NCBI RefSeq assembly: GCF_003334765.1
Contig: NZ_QOWT01000006.1
Origin: Escherichia coli
Lineage (GTDB): Bacteria > Pseudomonadota > Gammaproteobacteria > Enterobacterales > Enterobacteriaceae
Strand: one strand, 5' to 3'
Length of the DNA stretch: 64,000 nt
The notes under the pieces were generated by a model, which was not told the origin of the DNA, searched no databases, and worked only from the letters and a program-made list of their open reading frames with translations. Positions 23,201 through 37,838 of the stretch are shown here, in pieces. The translations under genes were made by a program, and so were the position numbers. Within the stretch, counting starts at the first letter, position 1; every line of letters starts with the position of its first letter.

Positions 23201-24376
23201 ATGCGTCTGTTTTCTATTCCTCCACCCACGCTACTGGCGGGGTTTCTGGCGGTATTAATTGGCTACGCCAGTTCAGCGGCAATAATCTGGCAAGCAGCGA
23301 TTGTCGCCGGAGCCACCACTGCACAAATCTCTGGCTGGATGACGGCGCTGGGGCTGGCAATGGGCGTCAGTACGCTGACTCTGACATTATGGTATCGCGT
23401 ACCTGTTCTCACCGCATGGTCAACGCCTGGCGCGGCTTTGTTGGTCACCGGATTGCAGGGACTAACACTTAACGAAGCCATCGGCGTTTTTATTGTCACC
23501 AACGCGCTAATAGTCCTCTGCGGCATAACGGGACTCTTTGCTCGTCTGATGCGCATTATTCCGCACTCGCTTGCGGCGGCAATGCTTGCCGGGATTTTAT
23601 TACGCTTTGGTTTACAGGCGTTTGCCAGTCTGGACGGTCAATTTACGTTGTGTGGAAGTATGTTGCTGGTATGGCTGGCAACCAAGGCCGTTGCGCCGCG
23701 CTATGCGGTAATTGCCGCGATGATTATTGGGATCGTGATCGTCATCGCGCAAGGTGACGTTGTCACAACTGATGTTGTCTTTAAACCCGTTCTCCCCACT
23801 TATATTACCCCTGATTTTTCGTTTGCTCACAGCCTGAGCGTTGCACTCCCCCTTTTTCTGGTGACGATGGCATCGCAAAACGCACCGGGTATCGCAGCAA
23901 TGAAAGCAGCTGGATATTCGGCTCCTGTTTCGCCATTAATTGTATTTACTGGATTGCTGGCACTGGTTTTTTCCCCTTTCGGCGTTTATTCCGTCGGTAT
24001 TGCGGCAATCACCGCGGCTATTTGCCAAAGCCCGGAAGCGCATCCGGATAAAGATCAACGTTGGCTGGCCGCTGCCGTTGCAGGCATTTTCTATTTGCTC
24101 GCAGGTCTGTTTGGTAGTGCCATTACCGGGATGATGGCTGCCCTGCCCGTAAGTTGGATCCAGATGCTGGCAGGTCTGGCGCTGTTAAGTACCATCGGCG
24201 GCAGTTTGTATCAGGCGCTGCATAATGAGCGTGAGCGAGACGCGGCGGTGGTGGCATTTCTGGTAACGGCAAGTGGATTGACGCTGGTCGGGATTGGTTC
24301 TGCGTTTTGGGGATTAATTGCCGGAGGCGTTTGTTACGTGGTGTTGAATTTAATCGCTGACAGAAACCGATATTGA
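23201..24376 (+). CDS. ydcO: BenE-family membrane transporter
   Basis: 391 codons from the ATG at 23201 with a GAGGTG Shine-Dalgarno (MRLFSIPPPTLLAGF...). The longer track ORF would overlap ydcN on the opposite strand. Confidence 0.8.
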   Translation: MRLFSIPPPTLLAGFLAVLIGYASSAAIIWQAAIVAGATTAQISGWMTALGLAMGVSTLTLTLWYRVPVLTAWSTPGAALLVTGLQGLTLNEAIGVFIVTNALIVLCGITGLFARLMRIIPHSLAAAMLAGILLRFGLQAFASLDGQFTLCGSMLLVWLATKAVAPRYAVIAAMIIGIVIVIAQGDVVTTDVVFKPVLPTYITPDFSFAHSLSVALPLFLVTMASQNAPGIAAMKAAGYSAPVSPLIVFTGLLALVFSPFGVYSVGIAAITAAICQSPEAHPDKDQRWLAAAVAGIFYLLAGLFGSAITGMMAALPVSWIQMLAGLALLSTIGGSLYQALHNERERDAAVVAFLVTASGLTLVGIGSAFWGLIAGGVCYVVLNLIADRNRY

Positions 24377-24379
24377 CAT

Positions 24380-26125
24380 CCTCCACGCCCTGAAGGACGT
24401 GGATCCCTGCTACGTTCAGGCTGTCGCCTGAATCATTTCGGTGGGTTCCTGCTTCAACGGGCGGCCTGACTGCACCATCTCTCCACAGGCAAGAACGGCG
24501 TGCCCCGCCGCTAAAATGTTGCGAGCGCCATTTACATCGGCGTTCGCTGTATATCCACATACCTGGCATCTGAATTTACTTTGTGACAGGCGGTTCTCTT
24601 TCGCTGTATGACCACAGTACGCGCAACGCTGGCTTGTATACGCTGGCGGAACAGCAAGCACCTGACCGCCACGCCAGAGCTGCTTGTACGCAAGCTGGCG
24701 GCGCATTTCATACCAGCCCTGATCCAGTATCGAACGGTTTAAACCTGATTTTGCCCGGACATTGCGCCCCGGCTGGCTGACCGTACCCGCTGCTGACTTT
24801 GACATGTTGCTGACCTTCAAATCCTCAATGACTATCATTGCGTGGTTTTTGCTGACGGCCGTTGTGACTTTGTGAAGGTAGTCCCTGCGGATATTTGCGA
24901 TACAGGAATGCAGTCGCTGTATTTTGCGTTTCTGCTTTTGCCAGTTGTTGCTGAATTTGACCTTGCGGCTTAACTGTCGCTGAAGTCTCGCCAGCTTCTT
25001 CTGGTTTTTCTGAAAACTGTTTACAGGCTCAAAGACTGTGCCATCTGACAGCGTGGCGAGTTTAGCCACGCCAGCATCCAGCCCGACCATTGATGCTGAA
25101 GGGTGAACCGGAGTTGATACTTCACTTTCTGTCTGAATACTGATGTACCACTTACCGCAGGACTGGCTGACAGTGACATTTTTCACAACACCCGTGACCT
25201 GACGGCTGTTCCGGTAGCGCATCCAGCCCAGTTTCGGCAGAAAAATACGGCTGTTTTCCTGATCGAGCTTAACGCCCTGCGGGTAGCGGAATGCATCATT
25301 CTGTCCCCGCTTTTTGAATCGGGGAAAAGCAGCCCGCTTCCGGAAGAAGTTTTTGTAAGCCCGCTCAAGGTCTTTCAGTGACTGTTGCAATGGCTGTGAG
25401 GGAGAATCTTTAAGCCATTGCGTTTCAGTGGCATTTTTCCACTCAACCAGCCAGGAAGCCATTTTCCCGTAAGGGATGTATTTATTACCGGCCTCATGAT
25501 TCTCATTCTGACGTGCCAGAGCACGATTGAAAACGAAACGACATGCGCCTGCGAAGCGCCTCATTTCACACTCCTGTTGACCACCGGGTCTTAACTGGAA
25601 TTTAAATGCCTGTAATCGTTTCACAGGTCAAATGATACTTTGGTCTGTGAAAAAAGAAACCGATATCCGGCGTGGAAGGCATTGTGTTTTCCTGATGCAT
25701 GTTCACCTGCTCTTTGTCACCAGATACCGACGCCAGATTTTTGACCATGACGCGACAGAAAAACTACGCACTTACTTTTCAAATGTATGTGCTGATTTTG
25801 AAGCTGAACTGGTTGAAATGGATGGCGAACCAGATCACGTCCATTTGTTAATTAACTATCCTCCCAAACTGGCGATATCCAGTCTGGTAAACAGCCTCAA
25901 AGGCGTATCGGGTAGGTGACTGCGACGAGATCGACCAGATATTGCATTCAGGTATTACTACAAAGGCGTTTTGTGGAGTCCTGGCTATTTTGCCAGTAGC
26001 TGCGGAGGTGCGCCAATATCCGTCATCCGCCAATACATTGAACAACAGCAAACACCTGGTCAGGTGGAAAACCGCGCCTTATATCCCCGCCCTGAAGGAT
26101 GGGGTTTTACGGCGCACCGGATAAA
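24380..26125. mobile_element. IS200/IS605-family insertion sequence (IS609-like) with intact tnpB and frameshifted tnpA
   Basis: Divergent tnpB and tnpA; subterminal imperfect palindromes with a shared core gccctgaagga at 24383-24402 and 26085-26104 in direct orientation, as expected for hairpin ends of this family. The exact ends are approximate. Confidence 0.6.
24416..25624 (-). CDS. insQ: TnpB (IS605 OrfB-family RuvC-like nuclease with C-terminal zinc finger)
   Basis: 402-aa ORF with N-terminal ..AFKFQLRP.. and a C-terminal CAYCGH...CQVCGY zinc finger. Confidence 0.85.
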
Positions 26126-26136
26126 AAGCGCCATCT
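25632..26136 (+). pseudogene. insP: IS200-type TnpA (HuH transposase) disrupted by a frameshift
   Basis: First piece (25632-25919) carries the HuH motif HVHLL; the conserved C-terminus (..LWSPGYFASSCGGAPISVIRQYIEQQ) is in a different frame downstream. Confidence 0.65.
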
Positions 26137-26147
26137 AACGATGGCGC
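26121..26147 (-). terminator. intrinsic terminator downstream of ydcL
   Basis: Hairpin gcgccatc-gtta-gatggcgc followed on the minus strand by TTTTT, 9 nt after the ydcL stop. Confidence 0.5.
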
Positions 26148-36877: not shown

Positions 36878-37099
36878 TGACCAAAAACCTCTTTGCGTCA
36901 CATTTTTACAACAATTATTGCATAGAAAATTAATGCTATTGGAATGAAGAGAGTAACGAATGGCTAAACTGGCTAACCCGAATGACGAAAAATTCTGGAA
37001 AACAGCACGCAATTTCGTGAAGTGATTATTTTCGTCCCTAAGGAAACCTCATAGGATGCCTGCGGGTGCCTGAGACTTTCTGTTTTCAGGCTAACCGGG

Positions 37100-37151
37100 A
37101 ATCAGAAAGACGAAGGCCCCGACCGATATTTCTATCAACCGAGGCCAACGA

Positions 37152-37170
<19 letters not shown>
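37100..37170 (-). ncRNA. sokB: expected position of the Sok-type antisense RNA of the hokB locus (approximate)
   Basis: Inferred from hok/sok family architecture (antisense RNA overlapping the mok translation start). No promoter or terminator could be resolved confidently, so the coordinates are approximate. Confidence 0.25.
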
Positions 37171-37359
<189 letters not shown>

Positions 37360-37774: not shown

Positions 37775-37838
37775 CTTCCGATGTAGACCCGTATTCTTCG
37801 CCTGTACCACGGGTCGGTTTTAGTACAGGCGTTTTCTT
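37775..37838 (+). ncRNA. rydC: RydC-like Hfq-dependent small RNA (about 64 nt)
   Basis: TATAAT -10 at 37764-37769, then cuuccgauguagacccguauucuucgccuguaccacgggucgguuuuaguacaggcguuuucuu with a 9-bp terminator stem (cgcctgtac / gtacaggcg) and U-tract. Lies in the ydcA-cybB intergenic region, where I recall RydC mapping in K-12. Confidence 0.65.

Follow-up and report, generated by a model that had tools for sequence, protein, structure and literature searches.

An IS609 copy at the ydcO-ydcL locus of Escherichia coli with a disabled tnpA, an intact tnpB and a predicted guide against the empty allele

Positions 24,380–26,125 of a 64,000-nucleotide stretch of Escherichia coli DNA (contig NZ_QOWT01000006.1 of assembly GCF_003334765.1; hereafter the window) had been assigned, in a preliminary description, to an IS605-family element with an intact TnpB nuclease and a broken TnpA transposase. 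By its sequence, the feature is a copy of the insertion sequence IS609, an IS605-type member of the IS200/IS605 family, which lies between ydcO and ydcL and which was already known and annotated as insQ accompanied by a tnpA/insP pseudogene. The explanation that accounts best for the data, and that I hold to be probable, is that this copy has a dead tnpA but an intact tnpB and omega RNA, and that TnpB is likely guided against the empty allele of the same locus. The element is real, ordinary and known before, and its early interpretation was broadly right, the frameshift claimed for tnpA being wrong. In itself it is of little importance, IS609 and insQ having long been annotated in E. coli K-12. 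A modest value lies in the correction of the tnpA lesion to a nonsense mutation and in boundaries, target motif and guide that are now exact; another lies in a single orthologous locus at which neutral decay of tnpA by many independent lesions can be set against constraint on tnpB and on the RNA scaffold.

Identity, boundaries and insertion site of the element

A 1901-nt query spanning the region finds 100% identity in many complete E. coli genomes, and this recurrence of identical DNA excludes a chance occurrence. RefSeq labels the two genes in these genomes as insQ ('RNA-guided endonuclease InsQ/TnpB family protein') and as a tnpA pseudogene ('internal stop; ... missing C-terminus'). The copy carried by J53, a K-12 derivative, differs from that of the window by a single synonymous base, at 24686, and encodes an identical InsQ protein (WP_000826416.1); copies found at another locus, the tnpA of which is named 'IS609 family transposase' by RefSeq, are 97.8% identical to the window element. 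These two comparisons identify the element as IS609. The IS609 of K-12 (insQ/ydcM and the tnpA/insP pseudogene) shows no substantive difference, having the same ydcO-ydcL locus, an identical InsQ and the same internal stop in tnpA; as compared with the K-12 copy, the element of the window strain is 100% identical to those of many non-K-12 isolates. The intact IS609 of O157-type E. coli, which lies within the ytfA TetR-family gene, likewise measures 1748 bp, has the same ends and a TTTAT flank, and shares 97.8% DNA identity with the window copy, but its tnpA is intact (143 aa, with Leu96 and a TAG stop) and its TnpB differs from the window InsQ at 12 residues.

The limits of the element are given by an empty-site allele and by the recurrence of the same ends at three other insertion sites. 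The empty site in strain EcN_Sk (Nissle) reads ...GAAACCGATA|ATAAAAAGCGCC..., and the window holds 1748 bp exactly between these two halves, with no duplication. The complete IS609 extends from 24373 to 26120, its tnpB-sense 'top' strand being the minus strand of the window; the limits first proposed, 24380–26125, captured the element but not its exact boundaries. On the minus strand, TTTAT forms the left flank, the left end (LE) opens with CCGGTGCGCC, the right end (RE) closes with GGATGTCAA and the right flank is TATCGGTTTCTGTCAG. LE (26064–26120, minus strand) contains a hairpin, CCCCATCC-TTCA-GGGCGGGG (26104–26085), set within a longer GGTGCGCC...GGCGCGG stem, and RE (24373–24415, minus strand) contains the hairpin TCCACGTCC-TTCA-GGGCGTGGA (24403–24382) ahead of its terminal sequence. 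The similar subterminal palindromes in direct orientation that had been noticed at both ends are indeed there: the 21-nt direct copies at 24382–24402 and 26084–26104 are 86% identical, and each is an imperfect palindrome around CCCTGAAGG that folds as a hairpin. Membership of the IS200/IS605 family, proposed at the outset, is borne out by these imperfect palindromes, which lie on the same strand at both ends in place of terminal inverted repeats, by the HUH TnpA homologue described below, and by a seamless insertion 3' of a fixed short motif, which comparison of the empty with the occupied allele shows to have occurred without target-site duplication.

The target, or transposon-adjacent, motif TTTAT (26121–26125 on the minus strand; ATAAA in plus-strand reading) belongs to the T-tract of the ydcL terminator, the stem of which lies at 26147–26128. 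Each of the four independent E. coli insertion sites (ydcO-ydcL, ytfA, yfeD/gltX and hslO/yhgE) shows it beside LE, with the same element ends, and the LE flank in Enterobacterales relatives is TTTAT or TTTAC. At the opposite boundary the element supplies the stop codon of ydcO: the TGA at 24374–24376 comes from its last four nucleotides, TCAA (TTGA when read on the plus strand). The last codons of ydcO are AAC CGA TAA in the empty allele and AAC CGA TAT TGA in the occupied one, so that ydcO gained one tyrosine at its end when the insertion replaced TAA by TAT followed by the element-supplied TGA.

Some variants of these sites and ends were seen in other genomes. Strain 7/2 (ST131-like; locus L004) carries, at 500–1250 of the extracted locus (window 26121–26127), an IS200C copy at a distance of about 3 nt from the point of IS609 insertion, within the T-tract of the ydcL terminator, the site being otherwise empty; TTTAT and the IS609 guide target are still intact beside IS200C, and this allele is common to many genomes. 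The site in strain HH45 (L003, 501–560) retains no more of IS609 than the first 27 nt of its RE, after which come 19 consecutive C and the normal right flank; this is a remnant left by a deletion or else an artefact of the assembly. The hslO-yhgE site, the fourth known for IS609, was found in strain Ecol_276 (L019), where about 250 bp of the 3' part of tnpA are lost and its start has changed from ATG to ATT, tnpB and both ends being intact. More distant betaproteobacterial relatives (among L041–L099) have TTGAT (ISDra2-type), not TTTAT or TTTAC, as LE flank, and in several of the relatives in that set the loop of the RE hairpin is enlarged by a long insertion.

Decay of tnpA and constraint on tnpB

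The tnpA (insP) pseudogene occupies 25632–26063 on the plus strand. It had been described as an HUH transposase gene split by a frameshift; it is disabled, but by point changes. The segment from 25632 to 26138 is a single reading frame interrupted by one in-frame TGA at 25917–25919 (codon 96), and the C-terminal part (LRRDRPDI...VIRQYIEQQ) stays in the same frame as the part upstream, which rules out a frameshift and agrees with the RefSeq wording of 'internal stop', not 'frameshifted'. As compared with the intact tnpA of another IS609 copy (L005), the lesion is a change of Leu96 from TTA to TGA. The natural stop at codon 144 (26061–26063) has in addition changed from TAG to CAG, and the frame that has lost this stop runs through the LE hairpin to 26138, 18 nt into flanking DNA. 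Read through the internal stop, the product matches the Y1 HUH transposase profile NF033573 over positions 2–126 of 126 with 142.5 bits (cut-off 55). Alignment to solved IS200/IS605 TnpA structures places the HUH histidines, H69 and H71 (25836–25844), upstream of the TGA and the catalytic Tyr135 (26034–26036) downstream of it. Since the catalytic tyrosine falls beyond the TGA, the truncated TnpA must lack transposase activity. That the TGA is a widespread allele and no sequencing error follows from a 61-nt segment with the TGA at its centre: of 4,995 records in which this segment occurs, 2,596 give a best match free of mismatches.

Because its tnpA is dead, the window copy is non-autonomous, being incapable of excision or transposition by itself. 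The element had been called immobilised, which holds in cis but not in trans: as neither end is damaged and other strains of E. coli carry copies with an intact tnpA, the intact IS609 TnpA being represented by WP_000604943.1, a second copy could still mobilise it through its TnpA.

The tnpB gene, insQ, lies at 24416–25624 on the minus strand and, as first reported, is intact and encodes a protein of 402 aa, from a GTG start, with the N-terminal sequence described and a C-terminal CxxC...CxxC zinc finger (C334, C337, C353 and C356). InsQ matches the NCBIfam guided_TnpB model (NF040570) with 379.8 bits against a cut-off of 100, as well as the Pfam families HTH_OrfB_IS605, OrfB_IS605 and Cas12f1-like_TNB, and it displays the WED/REC-RuvC-TNB architecture, the RuvC D-E-D triad and the zinc finger of guided TnpB proteins. 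Over residues 3–376 it aligns with the TnpB of ISDra2 (E = 1.9e-54). Loss of the RuvC residues would have spoken against a functional nuclease; all three are kept, D183 (25078–25076), E267 (24826–24824) and D363 (24538–24536) standing opposite D191, E278 and D361 of the ISDra2 triad. InsQ also gives its name to the TnpB group COG0675 (PMC10711439).

The two genes have fared differently in the population. The full-length element is present in 4,311 genomes, a count of the element anywhere in the genome and not of occupancy of the ydcO-ydcL site, and a near-full-length IS609 interior in 4,858 of 5,426 complete genomes, the median genome having two matching places. The ydcO-ydcL flanks are joined, the site being empty or holding a small insert, in 2,136 of 5,417 genomes and are not joined in the other 3,281, which suggests that the site is occupied in about 60% of complete E. 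coli genomes. Fifteen copies were sampled from a BLAST ranking, and tnpB is intact in all 15; the 11 distinct copies located at ydcO-ydcL were used to count lesions and to estimate omega, which compares non-synonymous with synonymous change. In these 11 copies tnpA has suffered at least six different disabling lesions, namely the nonsense changes L96*, Y76* and E62* and deletions of 5 bp at codon 38, of 1 bp at codon 14 and of 1 bp at codon 143; two copies have no premature stop, and the natural stop is lost in all but one. The variable sites of tnpA comprise 5 synonymous and 17 non-synonymous changes (three of them nonsense), giving an omega of about 1.0. Those of tnpB comprise 20 synonymous and 22 non-synonymous changes, with no stop or indel, giving an omega of about 0.32 (binomial p = 2.6e-4). 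Variable sites per 100 nt number 6.7 in tnpA, 3.5 in tnpB and 2.9 in the RNA scaffold defined below. These figures support the notion that tnpB has been constrained after tnpA was released from constraint, tnpA apparently decaying neutrally.

The omega RNA and its predicted target

The RNA that would guide InsQ was sought by comparison with relatives. A scan of one genome per species gave 80 loci, in Enterobacterales, Betaproteobacteria and other groups, with a TnpB 58–94% identical to InsQ. In 66 of them the DNA that follows tnpB closes in the almost invariant sequence GGAGGATGTCAA, with the boundary motif GTCAA conserved, and the sequences diverge immediately beyond; this confirms the RE boundary. 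The last 180 nt of 36 of these relatives were aligned and a consensus structure was derived by RNAalifold. The consensus has 30 base pairs, 20 of which show compensatory double changes. Of the alignment cells concerned, 95.7% are paired, against 42–55% in slid controls, and 119 are changed on both sides, against 9–27 in these controls; none of 500 shuffles reached any of the observed measures. The covariation is all the more telling because several of the helices fall inside the tnpB coding sequence. The single-sequence fold of the scaffold is not clearly better than that of shuffled sequences (z = -1.7), and the claim of a structure therefore relies on covariation.

The omega-RNA scaffold so defined spans at least 24511 to 24373 on the minus strand and covers the 3' end of tnpB and RE, as a conserved structured RNA that ends at the transposon boundary, in the manner of the RNAs of guided TnpB proteins. 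Its helices pair 24511–24506 with 24500–24495, 24489–24485 with 24452–24448, 24480–79 with 24461–60, 24476–74 with 24465–63, 24441–40 with 24407–06, 24436–34 with 24414–12, and 24403–24395 with 24390–24382; this terminal hairpin is followed by the tail GGAUGUCAA (24381–24373). An inner hairpin across the tnpB stop codon (about 24432–24416) can be seen by eye, at a place where the MAFFT register shifts between clades.

At gathering thresholds no Rfam family was reached within the element. A permissive search gave sub-threshold matches on the minus strand at the tnpB 3' end and RE, to HgcC (RF00062; 22.2 bits for a gathering score of 50), RAGATH-18 (RF03064; 25.4 for 44.9) and sot0042 (RF02656; 15.5 for 88). 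With scores below the gathering thresholds, the scaffold is not assigned to any of these three families, which are kept as hints only. The HgcC, RAGATH-18 and sot0042 RNAs are located at the 3' ends of tnpB genes, and the terminal hairpin and GGAGGAxGUCA tail of the IS609 scaffold resemble the HgcC consensus.

The predicted guide is the flank directly 3' of RE, 5'-TATCGGTTTCTGTCAG-3', at 24357–24372 on the minus strand, in the last codons of ydcO; its length of 16 nt is what the ISDra2 and TldR literature would lead one to expect. A guide region at about 24360–24400, overlapping the ydcO stop, had been proposed, which was roughly right in that the RNA would run from RE into the 3' end of ydcO; the guide proper is placed at 24372–24357 and the scaffold reaches back to about 24511. 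In the empty allele, the same 16 nt stand directly after TTTAT. A scan of the window for matches to the guide returned only the guide's own site, which is preceded by GTCAA instead of TTTAT.

A mechanism can be modelled on ISDra2 and on the IS605 elements of Geobacillus. In the IS200/IS605 family, TnpA excises and inserts the element as a single strand; the site left empty, composed of the transposon-adjacent motif and the former right flank, is then cut by TnpB and its omega RNA, and recombination restores the element (PMC10055086; PMC8612924). The study that describes this homing model also gives a TTTAT motif for a Geobacillus TnpB (PMC10055086). The insertion of IS609 was seamless and placed it 3' of TTTAT, within the ydcL terminator's T-tract. 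By analogy, InsQ, if produced, would bind the omega RNA, processed so as to expose the 16 nt of ydcO flank as its 3' guide, and the complex would cut DNA in which these 16 nt follow TTTAT, that is, the empty ydcO-ydcL allele. The occupied locus would be spared, and self-targeting avoided, because GTCAA stands where TTTAT would be. Cutting may restore or protect the element after excision, or may protect it against replacement by the empty allele. The predicted target exists in natural empty alleles, such as that of strain Nissle (EcN_Sk).

The two best-studied models differ from IS609 in some respects. The ISDra2 TnpB-omega RNA complex of Deinococcus radiodurans (PDB 8exa, 8h1j and 8bf8) resembles that predicted for InsQ in the RuvC triad, the zinc finger, an RNA that covers the tnpB 3' end and RE, and a flank-derived guide; its target motif is TTGAT, whereas that of IS609 is TTTAT, and in IS609 tnpA is divergent from tnpB. 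With TnpB2 of the Geobacillus stearothermophilus element ISGst2 and with IS608/IS605 of Helicobacter pylori, IS609 would share the peel-and-paste biology and a TnpB target motif identical to the TnpA target site, and ISGst2 also uses TTTAT (PMC10055086). Many Geobacillus elements have no tnpA at all, whereas IS609 here has one as a pseudogene, and hosts and sequences differ. In IS608, tnpA and tnpB are co-directional, and RE ends in TCAA, as does that of IS609.

Expression and alternative explanations

The preliminary description regarded the 7 bp between the two start codons as unusual and placed the promoters within coding sequence. The annotated starts, tnpB at 25624 and tnpA at 25632, are 7 bp apart, and the -35 regions would indeed fall in coding sequence, but the arrangement is common to the family. 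In 12 Enterobacterales relatives the tnpA ATG sits at the position of the GTG at 25647, 22 bp from the tnpB start, and the block between, AGTATAAT/ATTATACT, holds overlapping -10-like boxes, TATAAT toward tnpB and TATACT toward tnpA, 7 nt from the ATG on either side. This spacer suggests, by its sequence, a bidirectional promoter that would give leaderless transcripts in these relatives. In the E. coli control region (25625–25646, unstranded) both starts are GTG, each 7 nt from its box, and the change of one shared base pair has turned the overlapping boxes into TATCAT (tnpB sense) and GATACT (tnpA sense); the same change creates the annotated tnpA ATG. The 7-bp spacing is thus a family trait and in part an effect of annotation. 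A 14-nt inverted repeat, TTTCACAGGTCAAA / TTTGGTCTGTGAAA, extends over both start regions (25619–25652). Citrobacter amalonaticus (L021) and Serratia marcescens (L036) harbour relatives without tnpA upstream of tnpB; in the former, the left-end sequence GATATAAGGCGCGG lies directly upstream of tnpB, which makes it a natural tnpB-only derivative.

Several points weigh against an InsQ that is active and guided to the empty allele. Synthesis of InsQ and of its omega RNA is presumed; the GTG start of insQ has no Shine-Dalgarno sequence and its -10-like box is weakened, so that expression may be low. A simple scan for sigma-70 promoters found no minus-strand site and only two chance-level sites on the plus strand, and the three Rfam matches all lie under their gathering scores. 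In a single-copy strain devoid of TnpA no excision takes place, so that a homing nuclease would as a rule find no target there. The selection estimate comes from 11 non-independent copies out of a BLAST ranking, with each variable site taken as one event, and omega was calculated ignoring recombination and includes divergence that predates the death of tnpA.

A more specific version of this explanation I put forward tentatively: IS609 at ydcO-ydcL might be an old, fixed, non-autonomous element, the tnpA of which decayed independently in several lineages, and InsQ with its guide RNA might have been kept by purifying selection as an allele drive or guard that cuts an incoming empty allele (TTTAT followed by the 16-nt target). 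If so, the occupied allele would be favoured in inheritance without any transposase whenever the empty allele enters by recombination or horizontal transfer, and E. coli K-12 would naturally possess an active RNA-guided nuclease whose chromosomal target is defined. Provided that the constraint holds genome-wide, E. coli would offer a simple natural system in which to study the role of TnpB after transposase loss. The literature found on IS609, insQ and ydcM consists of surveys, a mutation-accumulation study and one screen in which an 'IS609' TnpB was purified, and none of these characterises the K-12 protein, its RNA or its target motif; the screen, a metagenomic one published in 2026, gives no result specific to that TnpB in the available part of its text (PMC12781874).

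The same constraint could reflect domestication, InsQ and its RNA having been retained, once tnpA had died, for a host function such as cutting incoming DNA that bears TTTAT and a guide-like sequence, or regulating ydcO or ydcL, rather than for homing of the element. The survival of tnpB in every sampled copy with an omega of about 0.3, while tnpA decays by several independent lesions, would fit such a role, as would the occupancy of the site deduced from the unjoined flanks, and there is a precedent for TnpB domestication in TldR (PMC10705468). However, the guide consists of no more than the flanking sequence, as it does in all mobile IS605 members, and the window contains no match to it other than its own site; InsQ, in contrast to TldR, has kept the RuvC triad; no phenotype is known; and the element ends are intact and copies at three other sites show recent mobility, so that selection at the level of the element can explain the constraint. 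I regard domestication as improbable.

That the whole element is an inert relic, with tnpB open merely for lack of time and both protein and RNA inactive, is also an unlikely proposition. It would agree with the death of tnpA, with the weak expression suggested by the GTG start and the degenerate -10-like box, and with the K-12 mutation-accumulation lines, in which IS609 is present as a single copy and no transposition was recorded (PMC5009759). Yet tnpB, 2.8 times as long as tnpA, has acquired no nonsense change or frameshift in the same 11 copies in which tnpA shows its six or more lesions, non-synonymous changes in tnpB are depleted, and no part of the element varies less than the RNA scaffold. 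Lastly, a TldR-like nuclease-dead repressor, which would bind DNA under RNA guidance without cutting and silence a neighbouring promoter, has precedents among TnpB relatives of Enterobacteriaceae (PMC10705468) but is barely credible here, since TldR proteins have lost RuvC residues or are truncated at their C terminus and lack transposon ends, whereas InsQ is full length (402 aa), its RuvC triad and zinc finger align with those of the active ISDra2 TnpB, both ends are present and the guide lies in the 3' coding end of ydcO, not in a promoter.

The explanation retained is thus that of a copy with a dead tnpA and an intact, likely guided, TnpB. The chromosome segment in which it lies has the gene order sutR(ydcN), ydcO, IS609, ydcL, tehB and tehA. 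An IS609-like element with a TnpB 82% identical to the E. coli protein is also found on a 2,057-bp contig labelled Streptomyces mutabilis JCM 4400 (L030), which is probably an enterobacterial contamination of that assembly. In the whole window, only two RNAs scored above the Rfam gathering thresholds, both outside the element and on the plus strand: the sok antitoxin RNA at 37064–37215 (109.7 bits) and the small RNA RydC at 37775–37838 (92.5 bits).

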